A stretch of 64,000 nucleotides of DNA from Chryseobacterium gleum (lineage in GTDB: Bacteria > Bacteroidota > Bacteroidia > Flavobacteriales_D > Crocinitomicaceae): the NCBI GenBank assembly GCA_945902775.1, contig CAMDMY010000004.1, positions 5,914 through 69,913 of the forward strand, in the 5' to 3' direction. Every line of letters begins with the position of its first letter. The first letter of the stretch is position 1. Both the position numbers and the translations under genes were made by a program. Below the pieces are notes generated by a model that was not told where the DNA came from, did no database searches, and saw only the letters and a list, made by a program, of their open reading frames with translations. Of this stretch, positions 2,811-59,846 are shown in pieces.

Positions 2811-3017
2811 TTATTTTGAAATTGCTATTACCTCTGGAAGTTCTTCTTCATTCGCTTCGAAAGGGATGTGACTTAATTCATCTACTTCTTTTCTTTTCAT
2901 TCTGAAAACTAAGAATAGCATGACAGCAAAGAATATGAAGAAGATAAGTAGGGAAAGGATTGGGTATATAGACACCCCATCGATTCCTGTTAAATGATGT
3001 TTTATAAAGCGTAACAT
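2811..3017 (-). CDS. ccoQ: CcoQ/FixQ-like small membrane subunit
   Basis: 68 aa with a single hydrophobic helix. Located between ccoNO and ccoP. Assigned by position and size only. Confidence 0.6.
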   Translation of the reverse strand: MLRFIKHHLTGIDGVSIYPILSLLIFFIFFAVMLFLVFRMKRKEVDELSHIPFEANEEELPEVIAISK

Positions 3018-3040
3018 AGTTTTACAATTTTGTATGAATA

Positions 3041-30878: not shown

Positions 30879-31784
30879 ATGAAAAAAAATACATTAACAA
30901 CTTTCTTTTTAGGTTTATTATTAGTTTCAATTGTAATGACAGGGTGTTCAGGAAATTCTGAAAACTCTATCGAAAATCAAATTAATAAAAAAGAAGAGTC
31001 TAAAGTTAAAGTGAGTAAAGAGGCTATAGATCAATTGATTCAATCTTTTCCATCGCCAATTGAGACTTCTATCATTATTAAAAAAGCAGGAAATGCATTT
31101 AGTAGTGAATTATTAATTCCAACTAAAAAATTAGATCGTTTTGTTTCAAGCTATGACAAAGCAATGGCAATGGGTGCTTTTGGAGGGGATATGGGATATA
31201 TCAATATTTATGAAAAATCTTTCGTCGCAATTGATTATTTAGCAGCTATACGTTTACTTTCTGCTGATTTAGAAATTGATCGTTTCTTTGATTTTGAAGA
31301 TATGATTAGAATGGCTAAAAGCTCTAGTAATATTGATTCTTTGCAAAGAATGTCAACTGAGAGTTTTAATAACATGGAAAAGTATCTTCGAGAGAAAGGG
31401 AGAGATGAATTAAGTGTTTTAATAGTTTTTGGAACTTGGTTGGAAGGCGCATATATTATATCGTATATAACAAACGATAACATGTCAGAAGAAATGCAAA
31501 ATCGTGTTGCTGAACAAAAAGAATGCGTAGAGAAAATTAATAAAATTCTTGTTTCTGCATCAAACGATAAATATTTTGCAAATTTAGCCAGACAGTTGAA
31601 GCCTTTAGTTAAGCTATATGAAAATGTGAAAATTGAAAAAATTATGAGAGAACCTGAAATGAAAGAAGTGGATGGTCAATTAATTTTTATTGATAAAAGT
31701 GAAACTAAAATAATCAAACCAGATGGTTTAGTTCAAGATATTGTTAATGAAACGGTTAAATTAAGAAACCAACTATTAAAATAA
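30879..31784 (+). CDS. Lipoprotein of unknown function
   Basis: Lipobox IVMTGC after a signal peptide. 301 aa, largely helical composition. Confidence 0.7.
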   Translation: MKKNTLTTFFLGLLLVSIVMTGCSGNSENSIENQINKKEESKVKVSKEAIDQLIQSFPSPIETSIIIKKAGNAFSSELLIPTKKLDRFVSSYDKAMAMGAFGGDMGYINIYEKSFVAIDYLAAIRLLSADLEIDRFFDFEDMIRMAKSSSNIDSLQRMSTESFNNMEKYLREKGRDELSVLIVFGTWLEGAYIISYITNDNMSEEMQNRVAEQKECVEKINKILVSASNDKYFANLARQLKPLVKLYENVKIEKIMREPEMKEVDGQLIFIDKSETKIIKPDGLVQDIVNETVKLRNQLLK

Positions 31785-37102: not shown

Positions 37103-40100
37103 ATGTTTAAGGTAATAAGTATATTAGTTTTTAGTATAATTTTTAGTTCGTGTTTTTTCGGACAAACTTTTTCATATGATAAAGAAAAATTCACAAAAGA
37201 ATTTGAAAAATCACTCAATGATTTTGGGCGAGGTGAATTTAAAGATTTCGCAAAGAGGGATTTGCCTTATTTACTTTTAGAAACCTCTGAATTCCCGAAC
37301 GATTTTTTCCAGAAAATGGTTTCTACTTGTAACTTAATGGAAACTAAGAGGATGCAACCTTTTCCTGAAATTTACAATTATGTATTTTCAGTTTATTCAT
37401 TAATTAAAGGAAAGCAAACTTCGGCTAGTTTTAATGCTTGGCAAAGTTCAGTAGATAAGATGTTAGATGCGAAAAATGTAAAGAAATTTGAAGATTTTAT
37501 AGGATTTTCAGCATTGTATTTTTCTAGAAGCATTTTGTGTGATAATGCAAATTTTGATTGGTATTATTTAGGAGGTCAATATTCTTTTGAATATACGGAT
37601 AAACCAATTTTTAAATGTTCAAAAGGCCAATTAGCTTGTAGAGTTTCGAATACAAATGAAAAAACTAAAAAGGAGCATCCATATGTAGATAGTATTGTTG
37701 TTTGGAATACAACAGGTTCGTATGATCCAATTGCCAAAAAGTGGATCGGAATAGGAGGTACAGTTACTTGGGAAAAAGTCGGTTTGGCAAGGGCAAAAAC
37801 TTCTGCTGAATTGAAAACATATGAAGTTTCAACTAGGGTTTCAACATTTTCAGCTGATTCTGTAATTTTAACAACTCCTTATTTTACTAAAACTATTAAA
37901 GGCAGAATTGCAGATAGAGCTTTTAAAGTAAATCGTGACGAAGATCGAATTTACCCTCAGTTTACTTCTTATGAAAGACGATTACCAATAAAGCAAATTA
38001 AGCCGAATGTAGATTATGACGGAGGATTTTCTTTACAAGGATCTAGTTTCGTTGGAATAGGTTTTCCAAAAGAACCTGCTTCGATGATTATTTCGAGAAA
38101 TGGACAGACTTTTATCACTGCAACTTCTCAAGAGTTTACAGTTTCACCAACTGAAATTCATGGAATGAATACTGCGATAAAATTAATGTGTAATGGAAAT
38201 AATGATTCTATAATTCATCCAGGTGTTGATTTTCAGTATGTTTTTGACAGGAAGTCAGTTGAAATGACGAGGACGAAATCAGGTAATGGTCAGTCTCCAT
38301 TTTTTAACTCGTATCATCAACTTGATATGTATATGCCAAAATTAACTTGGAATACAGAATCTACAGATTTGATAATGGCTTACGAGATTGGTACAAGTCA
38401 AGAACAAAGAGTTGCGAGGTTTGAGTCGAAAAATTATTTTGATGTGAAATTATTTGATCGTCTGCAAGGAATGGAAGCAATTCATCCATTGGTGGCCATT
38501 TCAAATTATTGTTTTAAAAATGATGAACACATTTTACCAGAAGGAAAAGTAGCTACAGCACTTCACAAAACAGTTGAAGAAGCAAAACCAATGTTATTAG
38601 AACTAGCGAATTACGGCTTTATAAGCTATGATACTGAAGCTAAGATGATTACTGTAAATCCGAAGTTGGATAATTTTGTATTCTCAAAGTCAGGTAAAAA
38701 AGACTTTGACAATTTAATTTTTAATACTGATTTAAGGCCAAAAGAATTAAAGGGATATACGGAAAAACAGATAGAAAAAGATGAAAATTTACAATATATT
38801 TTAAAGGAATATGTTGAGCAAAATGAAGTTCGAAGAATGATGACTGAATTTGGTAAAATGAGTCTAAGTTCAATGGAGTTAAATTTAAAAGCGATTGATT
38901 TTATAAATATTTCTGATGCTCAAAGCACAGTTATTTTCCCAACAAACAAAGAAGTGATTTTGAAAAAAGATCGAAATTTTGATTTTGTAGGATGGATAAA
39001 CTCTGGTAAGATGGAAATCAATGTATTAGCATCATCATTTAACTATAAAGAATATAAATTCACAATTCAGAAAACATATAAATCATTATTTAGAGTAAAA
39101 CCATTGTCTGAAAATGATGGGAAAAAACCGATTGCGATGATGAGTAGTATAAATGGTATTGTTGGTGAATTATTTATAGATCATCCCACAAATAGATCTG
39201 GTCAAAGTTCAAAGTTTACAGATTATCCTCAATTGAAAGTTTCTAGACCTTCTTATGTTTACTATAATTCACAAGCTATTTATAGAGGAACATACGATAG
39301 TAGTCGTTTTTACTATACTGTAGATCCTTTTTTTATTGATAGTCTTGACAATTTTGAAGAAAAATCTTTTCGAGTAATTGGGGAACTAACATCAGCAGGT
39401 ATTTTCCCGAAATTTAGAGAGAATTTAACCATTATGCCTGATTATTCTTTTGGATTTTCTACTAAAGCTCCAGCGGGAGGGTATGATTTTTATGGAGCAG
39501 GTTCAAAATATGATAATAAAATCATATTGTCAAATAATGGTTTACAAGGTGCTGGAATAATAAATTATGTTCATTCTAGTTCTGACTCTAAAGGATATAC
39601 ATTTTTCCCTGATTCGACAATTGGGTTAGCAAAATTCACAAATAAACCAATTGAAGTTGGTGTTCAATTCCCAGATGTTAATTGTGAGGCAGCCAATGTA
39701 ACCTATGTTCCAAAGAAAAACTTATTAAAAGCAACCTCTACACCAATGTTTGATTTGTTGTTTTTCAACTCTGAAGCAAAATTGCGAGGAACAGCTTTTG
39801 TAAGACAAAGTGGGTTGAGAGGAACTGGTTTAATGAATTTTAAAAATGCGACAATGCTTTCGGATGACTATGAGTTCACTCGTTGGGAAATGGATGCAGA
39901 TACGACTGGATTTAGTTTGAAGAATCAGTATTTAGAAGGCGATGAAGAACCGATTGCCTTGAAAACTGATAACGTTCAAGGTCACGTTTCTTTTAAGGAA
40001 AGAAAAGGTGAATTTAAATCAAATAATGGGGAAGCTAGACTTGATTTCCCTATTAATCAGTATTTCTGTACCATGGATAAATTTACTTGGTTTATGGATT

Positions 40101-41719
40101 TAGAATCAATAGAGGTTGAAGCGAAAGGGGGTGAAGATGATGTTGCAAATGCAGATTTGGATTTATTAGGACCTAACTTCTTCTCAGGTCATCCAGATCA
40201 AGATTCACTTCAATTTAGGGCTCCTAAAGCGATGTTTAACTTAAAAGAAAAATCCATTTTTTGTTCGAAAGTATATTATTTAGATGTCGCGGATGCTCGT
40301 ATTTATCCTGATAGTTCAAAAGTTATTATTCGTAAAAAAGCGAGAATGGAACCATTTGTTGATGCTAAAATTGTTGCCAATTATATCACACAATATCATA
40401 CTTTCATTCATTGTGGAGCAGAGATTACTGCTAGAAGAATGTATAAAGCCAAAGGTATTTATCCATATTATGACCTTGATAGTTTGAAAACAGATTTTAC
40501 AATGGATCGAATTTATCTCGATTCTACTGGACAAACAGTTGCAGAAGGGAAAATTGGAAAAGACGCAAATTTCTATTTGAGTAAGCAATTTGATTATTAT
40601 GGAGATATTCAAGTAATTGCGTATTTACCAACTATTATTTTTAATGGTTCAACCCGTATGAATCACAACTGTGTAAAATTTCCAAGATCTTGGATTGCTT
40701 TGAGTGCTAATATTGATCCTGCAAATATTCAAATTCCTATTGAAGCAGGAATGAAAAATAGTGAAGGGGATATAGTTACGGCTGGTATTGCTTGGCGAGA
40801 TTCAAGGGCATTGGATAGTTTGAAAATGTATCCGGTTTTCTTATCTCCATTAAAGAGTCAATCAGACCCAGTAGTTATGACAGCCACGGGGTTACTTCAA
40901 TATAATTTAGATGCTAAAGAATTTCAAATTGGTTCTATAGATAAATTATTAAATAGAGGTGAGGTAGGCAGTTACTTATCTTTGCATACAGAAACATGTA
41001 TGTTGAATGGAGATGGTAAAATAAATTTAGGTATGGATTATGGGGATGTTTCTGTAAATTCTGTAGGTATCATAAACTATGATCCCAAAAAAGGAGAGAC
41101 TACGATGAACATTACAGCTAAATTCAATATGCCGATGGATAAAAATTTAATGCAAAATTTATCTGAAAAATTAATTGTAGTAGAAGGGTTAAAACCTTTG
41201 GACTTTAATTCTACAACAATTGAGCAAGCTGCAGTTGAATGGGCAGGCCGAGAAGAAGCAGATAAGATGAAATCAGCATATACAATTAATGGTGAAATGA
41301 AAATACCAAGAGAAATGGAGTCTGCTTTGACTGTCACAGGCATTAAATTAAGTTCTTTTGATGTTAAAAATATGCAGGAAAAAGGTTTGATTTCAACCTC
41401 TGAAATGGCTTCTATTGTAACAATGTATGGGAAGCCAATGTTTAAACAAGTTCCATTTAAAGCCTTCTTTCAACAATCATATTCAGAGAGTGGAGTTGAT
41501 AAATTTGGATTTTATATAAATATTCCAACTTTAGATTATTATTTTGATTACTCTATGGAGAAGAAAGATGGGCTTTTACGTATACTGTCAGGTGATCCTG
41601 ACTTTGTAACATCAGTTAACAATATAAAGGAGGAAAAACGTAAATCAAAAAACTTCAAATATCAAATAGAAACAGGTAGTATATATTTGAGTAAGTTTAT
41701 GAGATATTTTGGAAAATAA
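37103..41719 (+). CDS. Large (1538 aa) secreted or lipid-anchored protein of unknown function
   Basis: Signal peptide with a possible lipobox (IIFSSC). One uninterrupted ORF. No motif I recognise. Confidence 0.8.
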   Translation: MFKVISILVFSIIFSSCFFGQTFSYDKEKFTKEFEKSLNDFGRGEFKDFAKRDLPYLLLETSEFPNDFFQKMVSTCNLMETKRMQPFPEIYNYVFSVYSLIKGKQTSASFNAWQSSVDKMLDAKNVKKFEDFIGFSALYFSRSILCDNANFDWYYLGGQYSFEYTDKPIFKCSKGQLACRVSNTNEKTKKEHPYVDSIVVWNTTGSYDPIAKKWIGIGGTVTWEKVGLARAKTSAELKTYEVSTRVSTFSADSVILTTPYFTKTIKGRIADRAFKVNRDEDRIYPQFTSYERRLPIKQIKPNVDYDGGFSLQGSSFVGIGFPKEPASMIISRNGQTFITATSQEFTVSPTEIHGMNTAIKLMCNGNNDSIIHPGVDFQYVFDRKSVEMTRTKSGNGQSPFFNSYHQLDMYMPKLTWNTESTDLIMAYEIGTSQEQRVARFESKNYFDVKLFDRLQGMEAIHPLVAISNYCFKNDEHILPEGKVATALHKTVEEAKPMLLELANYGFISYDTEAKMITVNPKLDNFVFSKSGKKDFDNLIFNTDLRPKELKGYTEKQIEKDENLQYILKEYVEQNEVRRMMTEFGKMSLSSMELNLKAIDFINISDAQSTVIFPTNKEVILKKDRNFDFVGWINSGKMEINVLASSFNYKEYKFTIQKTYKSLFRVKPLSENDGKKPIAMMSSINGIVGELFIDHPTNRSGQSSKFTDYPQLKVSRPSYVYYNSQAIYRGTYDSSRFYYTVDPFFIDSLDNFEEKSFRVIGELTSAGIFPKFRENLTIMPDYSFGFSTKAPAGGYDFYGAGSKYDNKIILSNNGLQGAGIINYVHSSSDSKGYTFFPDSTIGLAKFTNKPIEVGVQFPDVNCEAANVTYVPKKNLLKATSTPMFDLLFFNSEAKLRGTAFVRQSGLRGTGLMNFKNATMLSDDYEFTRWEMDADTTGFSLKNQYLEGDEEPIALKTDNVQGHVSFKERKGEFKSNNGEARLDFPINQYFCTMDKFTWFMDLESIEVEAKGGEDDVANADLDLLGPNFFSGHPDQDSLQFRAPKAMFNLKEKSIFCSKVYYLDVADARIYPDSSKVIIRKKARMEPFVDAKIVANYITQYHTFIHCGAEITARRMYKAKGIYPYYDLDSLKTDFTMDRIYLDSTGQTVAEGKIGKDANFYLSKQFDYYGDIQVIAYLPTIIFNGSTRMNHNCVKFPRSWIALSANIDPANIQIPIEAGMKNSEGDIVTAGIAWRDSRALDSLKMYPVFLSPLKSQSDPVVMTATGLLQYNLDAKEFQIGSIDKLLNRGEVGSYLSLHTETCMLNGDGKINLGMDYGDVSVNSVGIINYDPKKGETTMNITAKFNMPMDKNLMQNLSEKLIVVEGLKPLDFNSTTIEQAAVEWAGREEADKMKSAYTINGEMKIPREMESALTVTGIKLSSFDVKNMQEKGLISTSEMASIVTMYGKPMFKQVPFKAFFQQSYSESGVDKFGFYINIPTLDYYFDYSMEKKDGLLRILSGDPDFVTSVNNIKEEKRKSKNFKYQIETGSIYLSKFMRYFGK

Positions 41720-42403: not shown

Positions 42404-45400
42404 ATGAAATTTAAATACATATTCACATTACTTTTTTTTGTAACATTTGGTTTTGTAACATTTGGACAAGAAAATATAGAAGAAACAAAAAAAATTGCAG
42501 ACGATTTATTCGAAGAAGAGAAATATATCGAAGCTACTCCTTATTATTTAAGGTTGTTAGCTATTCAGCCTAGAGATCATAATTTTAATTATCATTATGG
42601 GGCATGTTTGTTACATAATTCAGGTAAAACTCAAGATGTATTTAAATATTTGAACTATGCTGTAACTGATCCAAATGTAGATGCTCAGGCGAATTATTTT
42701 TTAGGAAAAGCATATCATTTAAATTATCAATTTAATGACGCGATAAAATATTATAAAATTTATCAAACGAAAGCAGCTGATAAAGCTAAACCATCTTTTG
42801 ATGTTAAACGTCAAATAGAAATGTGTGAGAATGGTAAAAAATTAATTACCACGATTACCGAAATGATTGTTTTGGATAAAAAAGAAATAGAAAAAGACAA
42901 GTTTTTCCGTATTTATGATTTGAGTGATATTGGGGGAAATTTGTTGGTAACAGCTGAATTTCAAACAAAAATTGATGAGAAAAAAGCCCATGTTCCATTA
43001 ATTCATTTTCCTGCTAATCCAACTGTTATTTATTATTCCAGTTATGGCGAAAATGGTAAAACTGGGAAGGATATTTATGTACAAAGAAGGCTTCCTTCAG
43101 GAGGATGGGGATTGCCTCAAGTCTTGAAAGGAGATGTAAATACGAATTTTGATGAGGATTATCCTTACATGCATCCTGATGGCCAATATTTATATTTTAG
43201 TTCAAAGGGTCATAATTCGATGGGGGGATTTGATGTTTTTAGATCTAAATATGATCCAGATAACGATATGTTTGGAAAGGCAGAAAATATGGATTTTGCA
43301 GTTTCTTCGCCTAATGATGATTTATTTTATGTAGTTGATTCACTTAATAAAAATGCTTATTTCGGTTCAAATAGACAAAGCGAAGAAGGTAAATTATTTG
43401 TGTATAAAGTCCGTGTTGATCGTGTGCCTTTAAATATGTCTGTTATAAAAGGTGAATTTAATTCTACGATTAATCCACAGATGAAAAAGGTTTTTATTGA
43501 TGTGAAAGATTATTCAAATGGTGAATTTATAGGGAATTTTAATTCAAATGAAAAAGGGGTTTATTTGATTACTTTTCCCAAGGGAGGTAAATATGAATTC
43601 ACAATTAAAGTCGGTGAAAATAAACAAGAATTTAAATATCTAGCTTCAATACCTTTCCAAAAGGAATTCAAACCTTTAAAGCAAAAAATTATCCACGAAC
43701 TGCAAGGAGATGCTGAAAATGTGAGAGTTATAGATTTGTTTAATGAAGAAGTTGAAGATCCACAAGGTGTTTTTGCTCAAGTTATTAAAATGAAATCTGA
43801 ACTTAAACCAAATGTATCAGCTGAAGAGTTGGCTCGAATGGATAAAGAGTTAAAAGATAAAGAAATATTAAAAGTTCTTGGTTTAGATAAATTGTCACTA
43901 GTTGAGGTTGGTTATTTATTAAATGAAAAAGTACAAGATGCTAAAAAAGCAGAAGGTGGAACAAAAGATATTGAAAATAAAATCTATGCACAAGTTATCG
44001 AACATACAACCGAAATTAAGCGTTTAGATGGTTTAATTAAAGATAAAATTGAGAAAGCTAATTCGGCGCCTAATGACAAAAGAAAATACAAATATTTAAA
44101 AGAAGCCGAACGTTCTTTAAAAATTCAAGAAGAGCTAAAAGCATTGAATGATAAAAGTATGCATTTAGCAGATTCACTATCAAAAAACTCTACTAAAGGT
44201 TCTTCAGAAGTAACTGCTGAAATAACAAAGTTTTCTGAACATTTTAACGAGTTGATGAAAGAGAATAAGCAAGCAGAAGCTTATGCGTATTTAGCTGATA
44301 ATAAAGATGATATTAAACGTATCGTTGAGACCAAAAATTTAGATCCGCTTCAAGAATTAATAGAACGAGGTTTGTTACTCGATGCACAAATTGCAAAACT
44401 TCAACCAAAAGATGAGCAATATGAGCGTGATTTAAGAAAAATAGATGCTGAAATAGCGGAATTAGAACGTACAAAAGAAGGTGCTAAAAAGAAACAAATA
44501 GAAGAAATTGATGCTGTAATAAAGGCAAAGGCTAATGAGCGATCTATGATTGCAGAAGAAAGAAATTTCAACGGTCAAGGATTAAATGATAAAATTGCTG
44601 AGAGGTCCGATATTCGTAAGCAAGTAGATGTTTTAGAAGCAATTTATGTAGTTCAAACTCCAAAAGTAATTACAAAGGAAGAGTTAGACGCTGCATTACA
44701 ATCATCAAATTCAACAAATTCTTCAGAAGTAAGATCCCAAATTAGTGAACAAATTGCTCAATTAGTTCTTACAAGTCCGGATGTTAAGGTTGTTGATTAT
44801 GAGGATTTGGAGAAAGACTTAGGACCAGTTGTGTCAAATTCAAGAAGTAAATCAGATAGAATTAAAGCAGATGCTACTCTTTCTCCTCAAGAGAAAGCAA
44901 ATAGATTAAAGGCATTAGATAGAGAATTACTGAGTTCAATAAATACTGAGTTAATTAATGCTGAAAAAGCATTGAAATCAAATCCAACTGATCCTGAATT
45001 AGTAAAGAAATTAGAGGCGCTTCAATCTGCTAAAACGTTAGTTTCATCTTCATTAGATTTACCTGAAGGGGATGATGGATCAACTTTAGTTGCAGACGAG
45101 AGTTCAAATGTTAATAATGAGAATCAAGGATCAACGAATACGAATGTTGATTTTAATCAAACGAATACAGATGTTCAGTCGGGCAATGAGAATTCAAATC
45201 AAACAACAGCAGCAGCTTCTAACACCTCTAATTCAGGACCATTAGATTCAAAAGGAAAAGAGAATTTAATTGAAAGTGTAAACTCATCTTACAATGAAAC
45301 ATTAGCAAGTATTAATTCAAATAAAAACTTAACAGAATCTGAAAAATTAGTAAAATTACAGGAAGCTGATAAATCTTTGATTTCAAGTTTAGATAAAGAA

Positions 45401-48400
45401 ATTAGTTCGGTTGAAAATGCTTTAAAATTAAACCCAACAGACCCTTTATTATTAAATAAATTAGATAATTTAAAAACAGTTAGAGTTGAAGTTGAAGCTA
45501 AAATAACTTCGAGAGAAAATCAAATTGCAACTTTGGAAAGTCCTAGCAAATCAACTACTAATTCTTCAACTACAAATGTCATTACTCCATTAGATTCAAA
45601 AGGGAAAGAGAATTTAATTGAAAGTGTAAACTCATCTTATAATGAAACATTAACTTCAATTAATTCAAATGGAAATTTATCTGAAACTGAAAAATTAAGT
45701 CAACTACAGGTGGCTGATAAAACATTGGTTTCAGCATTAAATAAAGAGATAATTGGTGTTGAAGAAGCGTTAAAATCGAATCCAACAGATGCACTTTTAG
45801 TAAATAAATTAGAAAATTTAAAATCAGTTAGAGTTGAAGTTGAAGCAAAAATAGCTACGAGAGAAAATCAACTTACGTCTTTAGCAGTTAAAAACACTTC
45901 CAATCCTATTGATTCAAAACCAACAACAACTAATAATCCAACTTTAGCTGATAAACAGGTGAAATCAAATCAAGTTGAACCGACGAAAGTGTTAGATACA
46001 AAATCAAAAGAATCGTTAATTGAATCGGTTAATTCATCTTACAATGAAAAAGTAGTTGAAATAAATTCAAATACTTCATTGTCATCAACTGAAAAGCTAG
46101 TTCAACTCCAACAGCTTGATAAATCTTTATTGAATTCAATTGATGAAGTTTCTGCTAGTATTTCAACTTCATTAAAGCAAAATCCAGCCAATGTTTCTTT
46201 AGCCAAAAAAGTTGCAGATTTATCTACTGTTAAATCTGAAATTCAAGAGAAAGTTAAAAATAGAGATACACAAATATCTAATGTTACAACTAGTAATGAT
46301 ATACTAGATTCAAAAGGAAAGGAAACAATTATTGAATCAATTAATTCTACTTATAATGAACAAGTTGAAGAACTTCAATCAAATTCTTCGCTTTCAGAGA
46401 ATGAAAAATTAACTCAGCTTCAACAATTAGATGAGAAACTTGTATTATCTATAAATAAGCAAATTACGATAAACGAGAATTCTTTAAAATTAAATACTAC
46501 GGATGAAGTAGCAAAAAAGAAAATTTCTGAATTAAAATCGATTCGTTCAGATTTAGAAATTGAAATGGGAAAGAGAGAATCTAAGCTGACGTCAGATTCT
46601 AAATTAGTTACTTCTAATTCACCTTTAGATTCAAAAGGAAAAGAGAATTTGATCGAATCAGTTAATTCTTCTTATAATGAAAAAGTAAATCAAATTAATG
46701 GGAATCAAAATTTAACTGAAAGTGAAAAGTTAAATCAACTTCAATTAGTAGATAAAGAATTAATTACTTATGTGAACAAAGAATTAGTTAATATTTCGAG
46801 TTCATTAAGACAAAATCCGACAGATGCTAATCTTATTAAAAAAGAAATTGATTTAAAATCTATACGAACGGATTTAGAGACCATTATTTCTTCAAGAGAA
46901 AATGCTTTGTTAGTTTCGAGTCAACCCTTATCTGAAAAAGCTAAAAATGATATAATAGATGGATTAAGTCCGATGCATAATGTTAAAGTTGCAGACATTA
47001 AGTCTAATTCAAAATTAACTGAATTGGAGAAAACTAATCAATTACAAAAAGCGGATAAAGATTTGGTGTCTCTTATAAATAAGGAAATTCTTGCTTTAGA
47101 AAATAATATTAAGAACAATCCAGACCCTCAGTTAATTAGAGATTTGTCAGATCTTAAAAAGGTGAAAAAAGAACTTGAATCACATATTGTTTCAAGAGAA
47201 TCGAATTCAACACCGACTATTAGTGTAGTTGCTTTAACGAGTAAAGAAAAGGAATCTATTATTGAGTCAATCAATCCAAACTACAATGAAAATGTAAATT
47301 CTATAAATTCAAATTCATCGATTTCGACTTCTGAAAAATTGGAAGAACTATCAAAATTAGATAAGGAATTACTAAATGCTGTTAATACAGAATTGAATAA
47401 TATTGAGGCATCTTTAAAAATGGATGTAAAAAATGCTGATTTATTGAAAAAAGAGGCTGAATTGAAAATTCTTAAAAAGGAAATAGAAACTAAATTTAGT
47501 TTATCTAATTCTACTTCAACTTCGCCTGAACTTTCGGTGTCAAAAGAAGAAGTCGCATTAACAGAAAGTGAAAAATCAGACTTAATCGAAAGTGTAAATT
47601 CGACTTATAATGAAAAAGTGAGTGAAGTAAATGCTAATTCATCACTTACTACTAATGAAAAAGCAGCCAAGATTCAAGTGTTAGATAAAGACTTATTTAC
47701 CTCTATATCTAAAGAAATATCAAAAACAGAAGCAGCTTTAAAAAGTGATCCTTCAAACGAGCAACTTATTAAAAAAGAAGCTGATTTAACTGAGTTGAAA
47801 TCTGAAATAGATTCAAAAATTGCACAACAAAATAGTGTTTTAGCAGTCAATAAGCAGCCGTTAGATGAAAAAGTAAAATCAGACATTCTTAAGTCGATAA
47901 ATACAAAATATGATAAAACTGTAACATCAATAAATACGAATACAGATTTATCTGTTTCAGAGAAATTGAATAAGTTACAAGAATTAGATTATTCAATAGT
48001 AGAAGGTTTAAATAAGGATATTAAAATAACGGAAGAAGCTTTAATTAAAAAACCAAATGACAAAGCATTACTAGTTCAATTAGATAACTTGAATGCTGTG
48101 AAATCTGAAATAGAGGCTTCAATTTCATCAAGAGAAAGTGTCATTGCTTCTTCTGGTTCAACGATTGATGTTAAAGTTAAATCAGAATTAATTGAATCTA
48201 TTTCTTCAACTTATAATGAAAAGGCTTCTGAAATTAAAGAAAATGAGTATTTGTTGGATGGTGAGAAAATGATTCAATTACAGGAGTTAGATAAGGGTTT
48301 ATTAACGAAAGTTCAATCAGAAATTAAATCATTGGAAAAATCACTTTCAGAAAATCCTACAAACTCAGTTGATAAAAGAAAATTAGAAGGATTCAAAGCT

Positions 48401-51400
48401 GTTGAATTAGATTTATCTAAATCGATAGCGGTTAGAGAAAAATCAATTTCACCTTCAGATTTAGATCACGCATTGGCTAAAAAAGGAAGTATAATTGAAA
48501 AATTCAGTCCTGAATATAATGAGAAAGTAGAAGAGATTAATAGTCACGCTTTAAATTCTCAAGTTCAAAAATTAGAAGAATTACAGAAGTTAGATGAAGA
48601 ACTTTTGGTTCAAATTAAAGAAGAAGTAAATGCTTCAACAGCTGCAGCTAAAAAGAAATCGAAAGATCAAGATTTGCAAAAAGCAAAAACGGAAATTATT
48701 GAATTACAATCTTTAGCTGAAAATGTGATTTCTGAAAGAACAAAAGAAATAGAGATTTTAAAAGCAAATTCTGTTACATCAAAACAAAAAGAGGAATTAA
48801 TTTCAGGAGTAAAACCTGATTATTCGTCTAAAATTGATAATATAAAAGATGCGAAATACGATCATTCTAAAGAATTGCAAGAATTAATAAAAGAGGAAGA
48901 AAATTTGGTGTCACTTTTAATAAACAATGAATTAAAAGTAAAAGCGGAATTAGCAAAAAATCCTTCCGATGAAGTCTTAAAAATAAAGCTTAATGTAGCA
49001 ATTGCAACTAAATTAGAAAGTCAATCCAAATTAGAAGATTTAGAAAAACAAGCAATTACTCTTGAAGCCCATGATATTGATCAATCTGCTCTAATTGTTA
49101 AAGTTGATCCATCATTTGAAACAGACATTTTTAAAATTGAAACTTCAAATTCAAGTAATAAGTCATCTGAATTAGTAGCAAGAGAAGTTAAATTACAGGA
49201 AAAAATACAAGCTCAAATTACAGAAAATGAGAAAGTATTAACAGAATACTTTAATCTCGAAAAAGCAGCTGAAAATCAAATTTTAGTCCAAAAATTGAAA
49301 GAAAGTAATGATAGAGAAGAATCATATAAAAATGGTAAAACGCCTATTCTAGCAAGTAATTTAGATCCAAAAGCACTCACATTACGTAACGAAATTTTAG
49401 GTAAATCGGCAGATGAAATAAATAAAGAGTACACGGATGTTGATGATTTAAAATCGCAAGAAAATATTGTGTCATCCTATTTAGATGTATTAAAGGTTAA
49501 AAGTGAAAAAAATACGGCTGAATTAGTTGATAATGCTCAAAATCAAGGGTTAAAAAATCAGAAATTAATTTTGGATTCGGAATTAAAAAATACTGAATTG
49601 ATGTTGAAGAAAATTGCTATGAAAATAGATGTTTTAGAAAATTCAACAGAAGATACAGCGTTAAGTAGTCCTGAATTGAAAGTTCTTATCGACAAAGAGA
49701 ATTTATTGAAAGAACAATTAGTAAATCCTTTATTGACTAAAAAAGAGAAATCAGTATTAGAAAAAGAATTGAAAAAGGTTCAAACTGATAAAAGTGTAGA
49801 ATCAAATAAATTAATAAGTGAAAACTTAACTGTTAGAAAAACGGATAATGAGGCTAAAACTGTTCAATTACAAAAATTAGCAGCGAATTCAGAAATTTCA
49901 AAGGTGAACTCAGATTTAGCAGATTCTCAAAATCAGAGATTGTCAAAAGAAGCAGATGCTTTAATTGCCAAATCAGATAAAACGAAAAACCCAATTGCAA
50001 AAAATGAACTTTTAACTCAAGCAATTGAAAAACAAACCCAAGCAGATGAAATTGTTATTGCAGCATTAGAAGAAAATATAACGAAAGCAGCAATTCTAAA
50101 TAAAGTGACAACCTTAGATTCTGAAGAGGAATTAGAAGAGAAAAAACGAAATTACGCTTTTGAAATTGAAGAAATTGATAAACAAGTAGGGGAGATTGAA
50201 ACTCAAATAGCTGGGTTAAAACCTAAAAAAGCGTTAGCATTGGTTGAGAAAAAAGGTGCGTTGGTTACTGAAAAGTCATTAGTTGAAAAACAATTAGAAG
50301 AAATTGAACGACAATTAACTGAAATTGCTGAAGCTCCAAAATCAGCAAAAACAGTAAGCGAGAAAGCACTAGAGCAACCAGTTAGTTTTAGTGAAGAAAA
50401 ACAATTAATTGCTTCTAAAGATTATTTGGAATACTCAATAAATGCAAACAAAGCTCTTAGAATTGAAAAACAAATCGCTGAAACAGAAATAGTATTAACT
50501 CAAAAACGTCAGACAGCTAAAGAAACAATAAGTATGTCTTTGGATAAAACTTCAAATGTTTCAGAAGCATATGTAGCCCAAAGTATAGATAATGTCAAAA
50601 TTGTTGAAGAAGAACTGAAAAAAATGACGGCTGAACTCGAAGAGAAACAAAAAATATCGAATGATGTTTTAGTTAAAAATTCAGCAACAGCTCTTCAGAT
50701 GCAGAATTTGGTTAAAAGAGGAGTTGAGCCAGAATTCAACGAGAATTTAGCCTTAATTGAGCAACAAAGAACTCCAGCTGTTGGTTTAAAAGTAGTAGAT
50801 GAATCCACACCAATTAATACATATTCTGAATCAAATCCAATACCTGTTAATGTAAAAAATCCTTCAGGTTTACTATACAGAATTCAGGTTGGAGCTTTTT
50901 CTAAACCAATTCCACAAGATATGTATAAATCATTTAATCCAGTTTCTGGTGAGAAGTTGGCAAGTGGTGTAACTAGATATATGGCAGGTTATTTCAATAA
51001 TAGTAAAACAGTAGATGAAGCATTTTCGCAAGTGAAATCCTTAGGTTATTTAGATGCCTTTATTGTAGCTTATTGTGACGATGAAAGAATCCCATTAGCT
51101 GATGCTAGAAAATTAGAATTATCAGGTCAATGTATTTCAACTGATAGTAGAGAATTTGTTATAGCAATGGCAAAAACACCGGTATCTAAAGAAGCAAATA
51201 CAAATGATTTATCCTATAATGATGCTCCAGGTGCTGTAAAAGCAATCCCTGCTGAGGCCCATTTAGGTTTGTTTTATACTGTTCAAGTAGGTGTTTATAA
51301 CAAACCAGCAACTCCTCATCAATTAAAAAACATCGATCCTATTGTTTCGAAACGTTTACCAAATGGACAAATTCGTTACTCATCAGGTATGTTTAGTTCA

Positions 51401-51997
51401 GTTGATGCAGCTAAACCCAAAAAAGAGGAAGCAAGAGGGAAAGGTGTAAAAGATGCATTTGTCACAGCATATTATAAAGGTGAGCGTTTAACATTGTCTC
51501 AAGCTTCGCAATTGTTGAAACAAAAAGGAGAGGGAATTTTAGAGAAAATTGATACTGAACTTTTGGCTTCTGTAAGTAATAAAGAAACTGTGAAAGCTGA
51601 AGTAGTTAAAGCGACTCCAAAAGTGACTTCAACTAAAGAAGAAGTTTCAGCTTACAATAAGGCACCAGGTGCTGTTCCTGCAAAAGCAGTTGAAGCTCAT
51701 TTAGGATTGTTCTTTACAGTTCAGATAGGTGTTTACAGTAAACCAGCTAATTCAAAACAATTGAATTTTGTAACACCTTTGATTACTAAAAAATTGCCAA
51801 ACGGACAATTGCGTTATTCTTCAGGAATGTATTCTTCAATCGAAGCTGCTGAACCAAAACGTAAAGAAATTTTAGAAAAAGGAGTTAAACATGCATATAT
51901 AACTGCTTACTATAAAGGAGAACGTATAACAATAGCAGAGGCGAAAGAATTGTTGTCTACTAATGGAGAATCGATTTTAGAAAAATTGGATAAATAG
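42404..51997 (+). CDS. Giant (3197 aa) secreted protein: TPR, PD40 beta-propeller and CarboxypepD_reg-like module, then a long helical repeat region, then three SPOR-like domains
   Basis: Signal peptide ...TFGQ. TPR-like YYLRLLAIQP...NYFLGKAYH. PD40 motif DEDYPYMHPDGQYLYFSSKGHNSMGGFDVF. SPOR-like YRIQVGAFSKP, FYTVQVGVYNKPA, FFTVQIGVYSKPA at about nt 50860-51950. Confidence 0.9.
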   Translation: MKFKYIFTLLFFVTFGFVTFGQENIEETKKIADDLFEEEKYIEATPYYLRLLAIQPRDHNFNYHYGACLLHNSGKTQDVFKYLNYAVTDPNVDAQANYFLGKAYHLNYQFNDAIKYYKIYQTKAADKAKPSFDVKRQIEMCENGKKLITTITEMIVLDKKEIEKDKFFRIYDLSDIGGNLLVTAEFQTKIDEKKAHVPLIHFPANPTVIYYSSYGENGKTGKDIYVQRRLPSGGWGLPQVLKGDVNTNFDEDYPYMHPDGQYLYFSSKGHNSMGGFDVFRSKYDPDNDMFGKAENMDFAVSSPNDDLFYVVDSLNKNAYFGSNRQSEEGKLFVYKVRVDRVPLNMSVIKGEFNSTINPQMKKVFIDVKDYSNGEFIGNFNSNEKGVYLITFPKGGKYEFTIKVGENKQEFKYLASIPFQKEFKPLKQKIIHELQGDAENVRVIDLFNEEVEDPQGVFAQVIKMKSELKPNVSAEELARMDKELKDKEILKVLGLDKLSLVEVGYLLNEKVQDAKKAEGGTKDIENKIYAQVIEHTTEIKRLDGLIKDKIEKANSAPNDKRKYKYLKEAERSLKIQEELKALNDKSMHLADSLSKNSTKGSSEVTAEITKFSEHFNELMKENKQAEAYAYLADNKDDIKRIVETKNLDPLQELIERGLLLDAQIAKLQPKDEQYERDLRKIDAEIAELERTKEGAKKKQIEEIDAVIKAKANERSMIAEERNFNGQGLNDKIAERSDIRKQVDVLEAIYVVQTPKVITKEELDAALQSSNSTNSSEVRSQISEQIAQLVLTSPDVKVVDYEDLEKDLGPVVSNSRSKSDRIKADATLSPQEKANRLKALDRELLSSINTELINAEKALKSNPTDPELVKKLEALQSAKTLVSSSLDLPEGDDGSTLVADESSNVNNENQGSTNTNVDFNQTNTDVQSGNENSNQTTAAASNTSNSGPLDSKGKENLIESVNSSYNETLASINSNKNLTESEKLVKLQEADKSLISSLDKEISSVENALKLNPTDPLLLNKLDNLKTVRVEVEAKITSRENQIATLESPSKSTTNSSTTNVITPLDSKGKENLIESVNSSYNETLTSINSNGNLSETEKLSQLQVADKTLVSALNKEIIGVEEALKSNPTDALLVNKLENLKSVRVEVEAKIATRENQLTSLAVKNTSNPIDSKPTTTNNPTLADKQVKSNQVEPTKVLDTKSKESLIESVNSSYNEKVVEINSNTSLSSTEKLVQLQQLDKSLLNSIDEVSASISTSLKQNPANVSLAKKVADLSTVKSEIQEKVKNRDTQISNVTTSNDILDSKGKETIIESINSTYNEQVEELQSNSSLSENEKLTQLQQLDEKLVLSINKQITINENSLKLNTTDEVAKKKISELKSIRSDLEIEMGKRESKLTSDSKLVTSNSPLDSKGKENLIESVNSSYNEKVNQINGNQNLTESEKLNQLQLVDKELITYVNKELVNISSSLRQNPTDANLIKKEIDLKSIRTDLETIISSRENALLVSSQPLSEKAKNDIIDGLSPMHNVKVADIKSNSKLTELEKTNQLQKADKDLVSLINKEILALENNIKNNPDPQLIRDLSDLKKVKKELESHIVSRESNSTPTISVVALTSKEKESIIESINPNYNENVNSINSNSSISTSEKLEELSKLDKELLNAVNTELNNIEASLKMDVKNADLLKKEAELKILKKEIETKFSLSNSTSTSPELSVSKEEVALTESEKSDLIESVNSTYNEKVSEVNANSSLTTNEKAAKIQVLDKDLFTSISKEISKTEAALKSDPSNEQLIKKEADLTELKSEIDSKIAQQNSVLAVNKQPLDEKVKSDILKSINTKYDKTVTSINTNTDLSVSEKLNKLQELDYSIVEGLNKDIKITEEALIKKPNDKALLVQLDNLNAVKSEIEASISSRESVIASSGSTIDVKVKSELIESISSTYNEKASEIKENEYLLDGEKMIQLQELDKGLLTKVQSEIKSLEKSLSENPTNSVDKRKLEGFKAVELDLSKSIAVREKSISPSDLDHALAKKGSIIEKFSPEYNEKVEEINSHALNSQVQKLEELQKLDEELLVQIKEEVNASTAAAKKKSKDQDLQKAKTEIIELQSLAENVISERTKEIEILKANSVTSKQKEELISGVKPDYSSKIDNIKDAKYDHSKELQELIKEEENLVSLLINNELKVKAELAKNPSDEVLKIKLNVAIATKLESQSKLEDLEKQAITLEAHDIDQSALIVKVDPSFETDIFKIETSNSSNKSSELVAREVKLQEKIQAQITENEKVLTEYFNLEKAAENQILVQKLKESNDREESYKNGKTPILASNLDPKALTLRNEILGKSADEINKEYTDVDDLKSQENIVSSYLDVLKVKSEKNTAELVDNAQNQGLKNQKLILDSELKNTELMLKKIAMKIDVLENSTEDTALSSPELKVLIDKENLLKEQLVNPLLTKKEKSVLEKELKKVQTDKSVESNKLISENLTVRKTDNEAKTVQLQKLAANSEISKVNSDLADSQNQRLSKEADALIAKSDKTKNPIAKNELLTQAIEKQTQADEIVIAALEENITKAAILNKVTTLDSEEELEEKKRNYAFEIEEIDKQVGEIETQIAGLKPKKALALVEKKGALVTEKSLVEKQLEEIERQLTEIAEAPKSAKTVSEKALEQPVSFSEEKQLIASKDYLEYSINANKALRIEKQIAETEIVLTQKRQTAKETISMSLDKTSNVSEAYVAQSIDNVKIVEEELKKMTAELEEKQKISNDVLVKNSATALQMQNLVKRGVEPEFNENLALIEQQRTPAVGLKVVDESTPINTYSESNPIPVNVKNPSGLLYRIQVGAFSKPIPQDMYKSFNPVSGEKLASGVTRYMAGYFNNSKTVDEAFSQVKSLGYLDAFIVAYCDDERIPLADARKLELSGQCISTDSREFVIAMAKTPVSKEANTNDLSYNDAPGAVKAIPAEAHLGLFYTVQVGVYNKPATPHQLKNIDPIVSKRLPNGQIRYSSGMFSSVDAAKPKKEEARGKGVKDAFVTAYYKGERLTLSQASQLLKQKGEGILEKIDTELLASVSNKETVKAEVVKATPKVTSTKEEVSAYNKAPGAVPAKAVEAHLGLFFTVQIGVYSKPANSKQLNFVTPLITKKLPNGQLRYSSGMYSSIEAAEPKRKEILEKGVKHAYITAYYKGERITIAEAKELLSTNGESILEKLDK
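44831..49330 (+). repeat. About 14 tandem in-frame units of 300-350 nt (roughly 100-116 aa) inside the giant ORF
   Basis: Unit starts read at about 45239, 45587, 45989, 46301, 46622, 46923, 47231, 47555, 47858, 48164, 48470, 48773 and 49075. Consensus PLDSKGKENLIESVNSSYNE...SEKL..LQ..DK.L......E......LK.NPTD.......L........E. Confidence 0.85.
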
Positions 51998-52507: not shown

Positions 52508-52515
52508 CAAATAGA

Positions 52516-52552
52516 AACGAGAATGAGAGCGAAAGTTTCATTCTCGTTTTTT
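52516..52552 (+). terminator. Rho-independent terminator after the tRNA
   Basis: aacgagaatga, 11-nt loop, tcattctcgtt, followed by a T-run. Confidence 0.8.
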
Positions 52553-52741: not shown

Positions 52742-53554
52742 ATGAAAATAAATTGTACATTTTTTTTAATTTTTACATTTTTCTGTTTAGTGCTTTCTTG
52801 TCGTAAGAAAAACGATTGTTCACAAAATATGCAAATTATAGGTCCTGATTCTGTATATGAAGGAGAAGAAATTCAATTAAATATTAAAAATCTAATACCA
52901 GAAAAAACAAATACATATTATTATTGGAATTATCCAGATATGTCTCATTATTACTCTCTTGTTGACAACTTTGTTGAGGTAGATTATGCAGAACCAGCTT
53001 ATATAGAAAAAGCAAGAGTTACAGATGAGGGACAATATACCTTTAAGGTTATTAGTAAAGAATGTGGTACTGTTACTGTTTCAAAAAACATCAAAGTAAT
53101 ACCTTTAGTTTCACCTTGTTTGAATTCTACGTTTGATAATCAACTTGATTTGACTAAGTCAAATTCGCCAATTCAAGTTTTTCAAAAATTTACTCCAATT
53201 TTACATGATAATTTAAGTGATTTTTATATTGAGCTGAAGATGCCAATGTTCACATATACCATGAACTTATATTTTTATAAAAGCATACCTGTTAAATCAA
53301 GTAGGTATCTAATTCGTAATCGATACCAAAATGCCTTTGATGATCAGATACCAAAAGATGAGGATTTGCATGTTTATATTGACTTTGCTACTGCATCAGT
53401 AGGGTATGATTATTATAGAGTTGACGAGGCTTTGAATAATTTATATTTAAAACGAGAAGGAAATCAAATGATTATTTCATTTTGTGATGTTGCATTCAAA
53501 GGGAAATATAATGATAGCATTGTCGTTAGTGGCAAAGTGAATATAAATTTATAA
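52742..53554 (+). CDS. Lipoprotein of unknown function
   Basis: Signal peptide with lipobox LVLSC. 270 aa. Confidence 0.65.
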   Translation: MKINCTFFLIFTFFCLVLSCRKKNDCSQNMQIIGPDSVYEGEEIQLNIKNLIPEKTNTYYYWNYPDMSHYYSLVDNFVEVDYAEPAYIEKARVTDEGQYTFKVISKECGTVTVSKNIKVIPLVSPCLNSTFDNQLDLTKSNSPIQVFQKFTPILHDNLSDFYIELKMPMFTYTMNLYFYKSIPVKSSRYLIRNRYQNAFDDQIPKDEDLHVYIDFATASVGYDYYRVDEALNNLYLKREGNQMIISFCDVAFKGKYNDSIVVSGKVNINL

Positions 53555-58064: not shown

Positions 58065-59846
58065 ATGAGTAGGTTTCTATCAGTTATAAAAATATTTTTA
58101 AATCATACGTATTTTCTTGCTGTAATAGTTTTAGCTTGTTTTTATACTCAAATAACTGAAAGTGACCGGTATTATGGATGGACAAATTCGGAAAATACAT
58201 TACCTGAACATACTTTAACAATTGATTCTGATGGTTCAGGATATTATGCTTACTTGCCTCAATGGTTTATTTATTCTGATTCACCTCATTTTTCATTTTT
58301 AACTAAAATTTGTAAAAAGTATAAAACGGATAAATTTACTTCAGGATTACATATTTCTGGAGATCAAGGGACAAGTAAATATTTCACAGGGACTCCTATT
58401 TGTATTTCTCCTTTTTTCTTGATGAATCATTTTCTGAATAAATTAAAAGGGGTTAATTCAGATGGTTATTCGAAAGATTTTCAGCTCTCAGTTTCTATTG
58501 CTGCGTTGTTTTATTCTTTATTAGGAATTATTGGTTTAATTAAGCTTTTAAAACTGTTCAATCTTTCAAATTCAATAATCGCTTTAATGGTGGTTTTTAC
58601 ATCTGTTGGTACAAGTGTTAATTTTTATGCTTCTTTTAATCCGGCTTTTTCACATATTTATTCATTTTGTGCGATTACCTGGTTTTTATATTATAGCAAA
58701 AAATGGGGAAGTACAAGTAAATCAAAATATGTCATTTATCTTGGCTTTTTATTAGGATTGATTTTTTTAATTCGTCCGACAAATATTTTCATTGTTTTAA
58801 TTATTCCTTTTTTATTTAATAATTATTTAGGTTTTAAAATAGCTTTAATTGAGTTAGTTAAGAATAATAAATCGAAAATATTAACTGCAATTTTTCTATT
58901 TTTAGGCTTAGTGTTTTTACAAGTTTATAATGTGTATTCACAAATTGGCCAATGGACTTTAAATACCTATTCTAATGAACATTTTGATTATTTATTGAGT
59001 CCTAAATGGTTCGAGGTGCTTTTCGGTTATGGAAAAGGATTCTTTGTTTACAATCCAATTCTAATTTTATTATTACCATCGATTGTATGGGGTCTTATTA
59101 AGCGAACTTATTTGACGATTGGATTTTTATTGTTTTTTCTAGTTATTATTTATCTTACTTCTTCTTGGTGGTGTTGGTGGTATGGTGGAGGTTTAGGTAT
59201 GCGACCTTTTGTAGATTTTACCAGTTTATTTATTTTGATGATTGCATTATTCTATAATTCAACTCATTCTGTGGTAAAATCGTTCGTTCTTTTATATGCT
59301 ATTTGTATGATTTATTTCTATCAAATCCTTCAAATTCAATTTAATAAGAATATATTGCATTATGATTTAATGACGAAGGATAAATTTTGGAGTATTTTCT
59401 TAAAAACAGATAATCGTTTTTGTTGGTTGACTCATTTTGAAGAGTTTGAAATAAAGGGAAAACATAAAAGTCAAGTTGTAAAGTTTCAACCTAATGAATT
59501 TACGATGTCTTTTGAGTCTAAAGTAAATAACCTAATTTTTAAACCTCAAAAAGATTGGTCAAATAGTCATTTTGGTTTACGATTTAAAGGCGAATTATTT
59601 TTAACGAATCCCGAAAGTAATACTTGTTTAAAATTATCTTTTTTTAAGAATGGATTAGTTATAAAACAAGTAGATCAATTTGTCGGAAATAGAATTAATG
59701 AGTTAAATGAGTATTATGCTTTTTCAAAAGATTACATTGATACAATAAGATATAAATACATTGATTCTATTAAATTAACAATTCCGAACGGCTATCCAAT
59801 AGTTAAGGCTAAAAATTTAAAATGTATCTTTTATTCCCTAGATTAA
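58065..59846 (+). CDS. Polytopic membrane protein, possibly a GT-C-type glycosyltransferase (function uncertain)
   Basis: 593 aa with about 10 or more hydrophobic helices in the first 400 aa and a soluble C-terminal part. Confidence 0.6.
   Translation: MSRFLSVIKIFLNHTYFLAVIVLACFYTQITESDRYYGWTNSENTLPEHTLTIDSDGSGYYAYLPQWFIYSDSPHFSFLTKICKKYKTDKFTSGLHISGDQGTSKYFTGTPICISPFFLMNHFLNKLKGVNSDGYSKDFQLSVSIAALFYSLLGIIGLIKLLKLFNLSNSIIALMVVFTSVGTSVNFYASFNPAFSHIYSFCAITWFLYYSKKWGSTSKSKYVIYLGFLLGLIFLIRPTNIFIVLIIPFLFNNYLGFKIALIELVKNNKSKILTAIFLFLGLVFLQVYNVYSQIGQWTLNTYSNEHFDYLLSPKWFEVLFGYGKGFFVYNPILILLLPSIVWGLIKRTYLTIGFLLFFLVIIYLTSSWWCWWYGGGLGMRPFVDFTSLFILMIALFYNSTHSVVKSFVLLYAICMIYFYQILQIQFNKNILHYDLMTKDKFWSIFLKTDNRFCWLTHFEEFEIKGKHKSQVVKFQPNEFTMSFESKVNNLIFKPQKDWSNSHFGLRFKGELFLTNPESNTCLKLSFFKNGLVIKQVDQFVGNRINELNEYYAFSKDYIDTIRYKYIDSIKLTIPNGYPIVKAKNLKCIFYSLD

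Follow-up and report, generated by a model that had tools for sequence, protein, structure and literature searches.

The SPOR proteins known so far are short division factors anchored in the membrane, and proteins of the Pal and PorE types tether the outer membrane to the cell wall at close range. In PorE, the OmpA_C-like peptidoglycan-binding domain is essential (PMC12773672), the Pal-like protein CHU_0125 of Cytophaga hutchinsonii is needed for outer-membrane integrity (PMC5891637), and SPOR domains are known to target proteins to septa (PMC6895207; bioRxiv 10.1101/2022.07.01.498525). The gene described here lies on the forward strand of a 64,000-nucleotide stretch (the window) of a genome labelled Chryseobacterium gleum (GenBank assembly GCA_945902775.1, contig CAMDMY010000004.1, positions 5,914 to 69,913; GTDB family Crocinitomicaceae), and it encodes a predicted exported protein of 3197 amino acids (aa). 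This protein belongs to a giant-protein family in which a head of the Pal/PorE type is joined to several SPOR wall-binding domains through a predicted rod that would be far longer than the width of the periplasm. Such an architecture points to an envelope element working along the wall, and not across it, and few along-wall elements of this kind are, to our knowledge, known in Gram-negative bacteria.

The gene is real, intact, native and conserved. As a first, sequence-only reading of the stretch had proposed, it is a single reading frame, which is uninterrupted, and neither strand has another open reading frame of at least 80 aa that overlaps with it. The same reading had allowed for an artefact of assembly, in which the repeat region of the gene would be collapsed or expanded, and it may equally be asked whether the gene is a pseudogene or a wrong fusion of separate genes, given that most of the relatives in the databases are incomplete proteins located at the ends of contigs, which shows that such genes often break assemblies. 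On the other hand, the frame stays open for 9.6 kb in DNA with a G+C content of approximately 30%, a value found throughout the window. The exact 3197-aa protein is present in NCBI, on a 70.5-kb contig, and a second assembly (European Nucleotide Archive, 35-kb contig) encodes a protein of the same length, identical in 3196 of the 3197 residues, the one difference lying inside the repeat array. In addition, the repeat units are 53-68% identical to one another in their DNA (81% in the case of units 1 and 2), the longest exact word they have in common is 35 nucleotides, and Tandem Repeats Finder detects only the 348-bp pair formed by units 1 and 2, so that a collapse or expansion of the array is very unlikely. 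Of two relatives, L002 encodes 3244 aa and 14 units and L003 encodes 3201 aa and 13 units, and complete homologues with the same head and tail (52 in a family survey based on a head-profile scan of one genome per species, from which the 80 best loci were taken) include one from a complete chromosome and one from an isolate genome. The artefact reading was thus rejected on the strength of the diverged units, the second assembly and the complete homologues, and we regard it as scarcely credible.

In the C-terminal tail of the protein, the sequence-only reading had seen three SPOR-like domains. All three are predicted to have the ribonucleoprotein-like beta-alpha-beta-beta-alpha-beta fold of SPOR domains, with a four-stranded sheet. 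The AlphaFold model of the tail (residues 2810-3197, from an alignment of 48 homologues) reached a predicted local distance difference test (pLDDT) score of 85 and contains three similar domains separated by low-confidence linkers, each with the predicted order strand, four-residue helix, strand, strand, helix, strand, short strand and helix. In a Foldseek search, the best match of this model was the SPOR domain of CwlC (1x60; probability 0.99, template modelling (TM) score 0.66, 26% identity), followed by that of RlpA (6i09/6i05; TM 0.54-0.59, root-mean-square deviation 3.2-3.3) and by DedD (6ztg). A profile built from 34 domain copies of the family, 17 of which match the Pfam SPOR family (PF05036) at E < 0.01, likewise found the SPOR domain of CwlC as its best match in the PDB (E 1.1e-4). 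A profile was needed for this, given that a phmmer search of the C-terminal 417 residues against the PDB sequences returned noise only. The Pfam cut-off (21 bits) was barely reached, and by domain 1 only; the assignment of the three domains is based on the profile and the structural evidence. Weak sequence similarity is usual for this fold, as the characterized SPOR domains are less than 20% identical to one another.

The residues that contact the glycan are also retained. When the family profile was aligned by hhalign with FtsN, the Gln of a Q-V-G motif fell on FtsN Q251 and the Arg of an R-Y motif on FtsN R285; the numbering of the FtsN sequence used here reproduces all five residues named in PMC6895207, which supports that sequence. 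These FtsN residues and their RlpA equivalents, Q270 and R309, contact the N-acetylmuramic acid of denuded glycan (PMC6895207). In the giant-protein family, the Gln is kept in 123 and the Arg in 106 of 138 domain copies, and both are found in all three domains of the window protein. A SPOR domain from the Bacteroidota, that of CHU2221, binds denuded glycan at approximately 0.8 uM and is septal in Escherichia coli (bioRxiv 10.1101/2022.07.01.498525). Given the predicted fold and the two conserved contact residues, the tail of the giant protein may be expected to bind septal peptidoglycan.

The whole protein contains only four Cys residues, two of which, Cys2891 and Cys2910, flank the extra helix in the C-terminal extension of SPOR domain 1. 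Of the 52 homologues, 22 have the two residues and the other 30 have neither, with none of the displayed tails having just one of the pair, a co-occurrence that suggests a disulfide and hence an extracytoplasmic, oxidizing location. Also in the tail, no match to a type IX secretion system (T9SS) C-terminal sorting domain, of type A or type B, was found with Pfam and NCBIfam in the last 417 residues, and the chain ends in the third SPOR-fold domain, on which grounds the candidate role of T9SS cargo was rejected.

Domains of the same SPOR subtype are found outside the giant proteins. The protein P0224 of Brumimicrobium sp. (709 aa) has two of them, which are 43% identical and which reach 37 bits against the Pfam SPOR family, and it shares with similar proteins of 700-725 aa a different PD40-like N-terminal region. 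These proteins suggest the existence of a modular set of PD40-SPOR proteins in these bacteria. Homologues of the giant protein with two SPOR domains (P0126 and P0130; L010-L014) end, in the 170 or so residues after the second of these, in an extra conserved domain (..IQIVTKKTFDEFP..NRYNSHGSFYYDETD..), with no Pfam match, and the third SPOR-type domain of the window protein occupies the place of this extra domain.

At the other end of the chain, the head (residues 1-445) is, as judged by alignment and profile matches, homologous to the N-terminal part of the Pal-like and PorE-type OmpA proteins. One such protein is P0107, a 591-aa protein with TPR, PD40, CarboxypepD_reg and OmpA domains (OmpA PF00691 at 72 bits), with which residues 20-403 align at 39% identity (E 6e-94), the order of TPR, PD40 and carboxypeptidase-regulatory-like beta domain (CRD) being collinear throughout. 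In the TPR region, residues 31-118 match consensus-TPR chains of the PDB at E 2e-11 as a single sequence and at E 7e-29 as a family profile, with Pfam TPR models remaining below threshold (TPR_16, 21.1 bits). Pfam PD40, the TolB-like beta-propeller repeat, is matched at residues 242-279 (30.9 bits, cut-off 20.9), which includes the motif quoted by the sequence-only reading (residues 250-279), and the motif GH[NS]SMGG[YF]D is invariant across the giant-protein family. The CRD has no direct Pfam match when the giant protein is searched alone; positions 350-446 of the family profile match the C-terminal regulatory domain of carboxypeptidase M (1uwy 298-390, E 7e-4), and P0107 aligns with this part of the chain through its CarboxypepD_reg region.

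The N-terminus, MKFKYIFTLLFFVTFGFVTFG followed by QEN, has a basic n-region and a hydrophobic core, with no Cys in this segment or anywhere in residues 1-67. Gln22 is nearly invariant in 27 homologues and is probably the mature N-terminus, left by a cleavage of the signal peptidase I type. Given that there is no Cys in the signal-peptide region, the giant protein is not a lipoprotein. The signal peptide, TPR, PD40 and CRD of the earlier reading are therefore all borne out by the N-terminal sequence, the PDB and Pfam matches, the profile and the P0107 alignment. Two further observations were made in this part of the gene: a perfect 15-bp tandem duplication (42436-42465) in the hydrophobic core of the signal peptide, which encodes FVTFG FVTFG, and a conserved pair of residues, Cys68 and Cys141, in the TPR region, which may form a disulfide.

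The description of the head as PorE-like holds as a resemblance, given the homology with P0107 and the partial matches to two NCBIfam models, CHU_0125_OmpA (residues 190-366, 81.4 bits, cut-off 620) and T9SS_PorE (residues 206-350, 70.2 bits, cut-off 600), the CHU_0125-type, Pal-like model scoring slightly above that of PorE. It does not hold as membership, as the protein has neither a lipobox Cys nor an OmpA_C domain and its 70-81 bits stand against cut-offs of 600-620. A PorE orthologue was rejected as a candidate on all three grounds, the lack of a lipid anchor, the lack of OmpA_C and scores that fall far short of the family threshold. The replacement of OmpA_C that the sequence-only reading had proposed is what was found, with no match to OmpA PF00691 anywhere in the 3197 aa and with a long middle region and three SPOR-fold domains instead.

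This middle region (residues 446-2800, approximately 2350 residues) is poor in Pro and Gly (together 1-8%) and rich in charged (21-42%) and polar residues. Its core is an array of units of approximately 100 aa, put by the earlier reading at about 14 of 100-116 aa, which is close to the 13 clear units, the first of them partial, and the one degenerate unit found here. The spacing from start to start is 99-134 aa, mostly 101-108. The two non-repetitive segments that flank the array contain no hidden repeats in self-comparison, with compositional similarity only, and are probably helical; from approximately residues 2100-2570 onward, the sequence is kept at 32-38% identity in relatives from the Crocinitomicaceae. 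A scan of the middle region for heptad periodicity was uninformative.

A homologue search with three repeat units gave no match at E <= 0.001, so the AlphaFold model of two units (8 and 9) was built on an in-register alignment of seven rows, all of them units from the window protein. The model is entirely helical (pLDDT 88), with helices of 11, 10, 32 and 28-32 residues in each unit, turns of 3-5 residues, and linkers between the units at pLDDT 66-74. This pattern fits an antiparallel bundle that would be approximately 4.5 nm long, a length derived from 30 residues at 0.15 nm each, and 13 such beads would span some 55-60 nm. The bundle beads of the earlier reading are thus consistent with the model, in its four helices per unit and its lower-confidence linkers. 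Foldseek returned no significant relative of the repeat model (spectrin, catenin and designed bundles all at E > 0.1), no match to the spectrin family was found, and the Pfam family DUF1542 remained below threshold (17.9-19.1 bits against 24.3, E 0.0014-0.003).

DUF1542 is a repeat of Gram-positive surface proteins, and this weak, sub-threshold similarity, together with the large size and the tandem repeats, would be the case for a surface adhesin. The chain, however, ends in a SPOR-fold domain and has no T9SS C-terminal domain of type A or B, modules of the SPOR type and of the Pal-like head type function within the envelope, and no Ig-like, cadherin or lectin domains were found, which leaves the adhesin as a very improbable reading. 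The features of the gene and protein are listed in Table 1.

Table 1. Coordinates of the giant gene and of the segments of its predicted product, in positions of the window.
Feature	Residues	Nucleotides	Strand	Evidence
Whole gene, 3197-aa predicted exported protein		42404..51997	+	Single uninterrupted open reading frame
Signal peptide (predicted)	1-21	42404..42466	+	Read from sequence; no lipobox Cys
TPR region	~25-145	42476..42838	+	PDB consensus-TPR matches
PD40 (TolB-like beta-propeller repeat) region	~190-340	42971..43423	+	Pfam; NCBIfam partial matches
CRD	~345-445	43436..43738	+	Profile match; P0107 alignment
Non-repetitive charged segment I	446-808	43739..44827	+	Pro+Gly 4-8%, charged residues 30-42%
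Array of 13 units of ~100 aa	809-2216	44828..49051	+	Iterated hidden Markov model (HMM); alignment
Non-repetitive charged segment II	2217-2800	49052..50803	+	Pro+Gly 1-5%
Degenerate 14th unit	2228-2300	49085-49303	+	Iterated HMM
SPOR-fold domain 1	2822-2912	50867..51139	+	Pfam, 21.1 bits; AlphaFold pLDDT ~90 or higher; Foldseek
SPOR-fold domain 2	2955-3045	51266..51538	+	Predicted fold; domain profile member
SPOR-fold domain 3	3101-3191	51704..51976	+	Predicted fold; chain ends 6 residues later

The architecture is not restricted to this genome. At least 52 complete homologues occur in the loci examined. Their length ranges from 1637 to 3244 aa (median 2229), and each has the head, a middle region that is 772-2384 residues long and between two and four SPOR-type domains. 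Their hosts are Crocinitomicaceae, Fluviicola (including the isolate F. chungangensis), Parvicellaceae, Cryomorphaceae and unclassified metagenome assemblies of the Flavobacteriales or Bacteroidota. In the databases, these homologues are labelled as hypothetical, PD40-domain or SPOR-domain proteins, or bear spurious names. In the distant members, the head and the tail align and the middle, which is poor in Pro and Gly across the family, does not. The closest relatives have 12-14 units of the window type, other Crocinitomicaceae have 2-6, and nearly all of the more distant members have none, so that the survey of repeat-number variation proposed by the earlier reading yields a range of 0-14 units, and two loci (L011 and L035) encode giant proteins that differ by approximately 100 aa, which is equivalent to one unit. 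In a search of 1.84 billion representative proteins, the unit profile matched 104 clusters, 67 of them with proteins of at least 1700 aa, and 60 of these 67 have both the head and the SPOR-type tail; the largest repeat-bearing member has 4281 aa. To judge from these matches, the 100-aa repeat is private to the giant-protein family, and its array is a lineage-specific expansion that would change the length of the predicted rod.

L011 comes from a record (CP034120.1, 2233741-2255237) whose title, Glaciecola amylolytica THG-3.7, names a gammaproteobacterium. Over 14 kb, the DNA of the locus is 78% identical to that of F. chungangensis (L035, NZ_VLPL01000008.1), and the gene order is the same, so that the name of the record looks wrong.

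The evidence from the two ends and from the array may be brought together in a mechanism in which a Sec-exported, non-lipidated periplasmic protein acts as a very long tether or scaffold anchored to peptidoglycan, a reading to which we give about an even chance. We are more confident of the architecture and the location than of the role. The giant protein would be exported by Sec and would stay in the periplasm, and no membrane-spanning segment was noticed beyond the signal peptide. Its three SPOR domains would bind the glycan strands of the sacculus, preferentially those stripped of their stem peptides, in which septa and new poles are enriched, and three domains in tandem would add avidity. 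The TPR-PD40-CRD head would most likely dock onto a partner associated with the outer membrane, a mode of binding proposed for its Pal-like and PorE-type relatives. Between the two ends, the 2350 or so middle residues would form a flexible rod of helical beads, the length estimated above for the 13 units being extended by the other helical segments. The usual Gram-negative periplasm, a general figure and not one for this organism, is narrower than 55-60 nm, and a rod of this length must therefore, if it forms as predicted, run along the wall and not across it. Repeat number, which has changed quickly in evolution, would set the length of the rod. Across the family, the array also provides naturally occurring predicted rods of graded length, with 0 to 14 beads, in which it may be asked whether length matters, and the presence of the family in Crocinitomicaceae-like and other Flavobacteriales-type genomes, including those of cultured Fluviicola strains, makes the proposal testable.

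Several results weigh against this proposal or loosen parts of it. The Pfam SPOR family does not match domains 2 and 3 when these are searched alone, and Foldseek gave only weak E-values for the query with all three domains, the best being 0.035, despite the good probability and TM score. Helix 1 has only four residues in all three domains, which also have an extra C-terminal strand and helix, so that their binding specificity could differ from that of canonical SPOR domains. In the middle region, the helicity of residues 446-808 and 2217-2800 is read from composition alone, and the two-unit model, with its seven-row alignment, has a predicted TM score of 0.52 and gives no firm arrangement of one unit relative to the next. 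Finally, the neighbouring genes tpiA, prmA, plsY and clpS, as identified by Pfam and NCBIfam, are housekeeping genes and provide no clue to function.

A different use of the same parts would be a periplasmic skeleton or track, in which many copies lie along the sacculus or side by side, forming filaments under the outer membrane that serve envelope mechanics, cell shape or gliding as rails. The predicted beaded helical rod resembles spectrin and Ebh in its unit size and all-helical make-up, the wall anchors are multivalent, and the length of the rod evolves fast while both ends are conserved. Filaments are also found under the outer membrane of gliding Bacteroidota, where their composition is incompletely known and only GldJ has been identified (PMC9870892). 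In contrast, there is no evidence of self-association, none of the homologues in the 80 best loci comes from a classical gliding model (Flavobacterium johnsoniae, for example), the neighbours examined include no gld or spr gene, and the repeat has no significant Foldseek relative. Overall, we consider this reading distinctly unlikely. The same holds for its most explicit form, a "periskeleton" of beaded rods, 60 to more than 100 nm in length, that would run along the sacculus, pinned by SPOR domains to peptide-free glycan and linked by the head to outer-membrane proteins, with the length tuned by the gain or loss of 100-aa beads, and that would act in envelope mechanics, in cell shape or as gliding rails.

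As for the locus, the gene order tpiA-prmA-orf1538-plsY-giant-clpS is widely conserved. The gaps between plsY, the giant gene and clpS are 40 and 53 nucleotides. Promoter and terminator scans found no boundary signal around the giant gene, the sole terminator-like hairpin, with 16 pairs, lying 3' of clpS (52513-52551, +). Given that no hairpin separates them, plsY, the giant gene and clpS may be co-transcribed. The gene at 37103-41719 (+) encodes a predicted lipoprotein of 1538 aa (MFKVISILVFSIIFSSC...), which is uncharacterized and has no Pfam or NCBIfam match. In 57 of the 80 related loci it is the second gene upstream of the giant gene, from which plsY separates it, and its product could be a partner of the giant protein, or the association could be mere conserved synteny. 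Elsewhere in the window, three open reading frames have no Pfam match at the thresholds used: 58065-59846 (+, 593 aa), 30879-31784 (+, 301 aa) and 52742-53554 (+, 270 aa).

The sequence-only reading knew of no described protein with this architecture, and no paper describing it was found in the literature. It is, on the other hand, not a peculiarity of one genome, given the widespread family set out above. The classes of domain are known ones; no paper that was found describes how they are combined here, how many SPOR domains there are, the private 100-aa bead or the extreme length.

When the giant protein is set beside the known systems, the repeat array invites comparison with the long rods of other proteins. 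Spectrin repeats have approximately 106 aa and the Ebh repeats of Staphylococcus aureus 126 aa, and these rods, like those of DUF1542 proteins, are built from tandem all-helical units. In the giant protein, units of about 100 aa joined head to tail are predicted to be all-helical as well and to make a long beaded rod. In contrast, no homology with any of them is detectable, and the predicted place of the giant protein is the Gram-negative periplasm, instead of the cytoskeleton or a Gram-positive surface.

In the Tol-Pal system of E. coli, with its associated CpoB, a TPR, a PD40 propeller, a long helical spacer and a peptidoglycan-binding module are distributed over several proteins that act at the division site, whereas in the giant protein all of these parts are in one polypeptide, with no inner-membrane motor and with SPOR in the place of OmpA_C, and nothing beyond the generic repeats suggests common descent. 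By analogy, the giant protein might be a coupling factor of the division site, in which the three SPOR domains would direct it to constricting septa and the head would hold outer-membrane proteins, thereby keeping the outer membrane attached to the wall, or drawing it inward, during division. The domain classes echo the PD40 of TolB, the TPR of CpoB, the long helix of TolA and the wall-binding end of Pal; SPOR domains do direct proteins to septa (PMC6895207; bioRxiv 10.1101/2022.07.01.498525), and the Pal-like relative CHU_0125 affects the integrity of the outer membrane (PMC5891637). A predicted spacer of at least 55 nm is, however, far too long for a tight coupling of membrane and wall, the protein has no inner-membrane anchor and its locus no motor partner, and there is no homology with TolA, TolB or CpoB beyond the generic repeat classes. 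This makes a role in coupling unlikely.

With CHU_0125 and PorE (PG1058/PGN_1296 in Porphyromonas gingivalis), the giant protein shares predicted export and the order of TPR, PD40 and CRD, followed by a predicted peptidoglycan-binding end. It differs from both in having no lipoprotein Cys and no OmpA_C, the place of which is taken by the middle residues and the three SPOR-fold domains, and its locus shows no link to type IX secretion genes.

The known SPOR proteins are small or medium in size, have a membrane helix or a lipid as their anchor, and are not known to carry more than one SPOR domain each. FtsN, for example, consists of a cytoplasmic N-terminal tail, a membrane helix, a short essential periplasmic region and a single SPOR domain. 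The giant protein has neither a membrane anchor nor an essential region of the FtsN type, and has a signal peptide and the 445-residue head in their stead. A homologue of FtsN was rejected as a candidate on account of the cleavable-type signal peptide, the folded head of 445 residues and the three SPOR-fold domains. What the giant protein has in common with FtsN, DamX, DedD and RlpA of E. coli, CwlC of Bacillus subtilis and CHU2221 of C. hutchinsonii is the predicted SPOR fold at the C-terminus, with its conserved Gln and Arg, which it presents three times (two to four times in the family), in a form with a shortened helix 1 and an added strand and helix.

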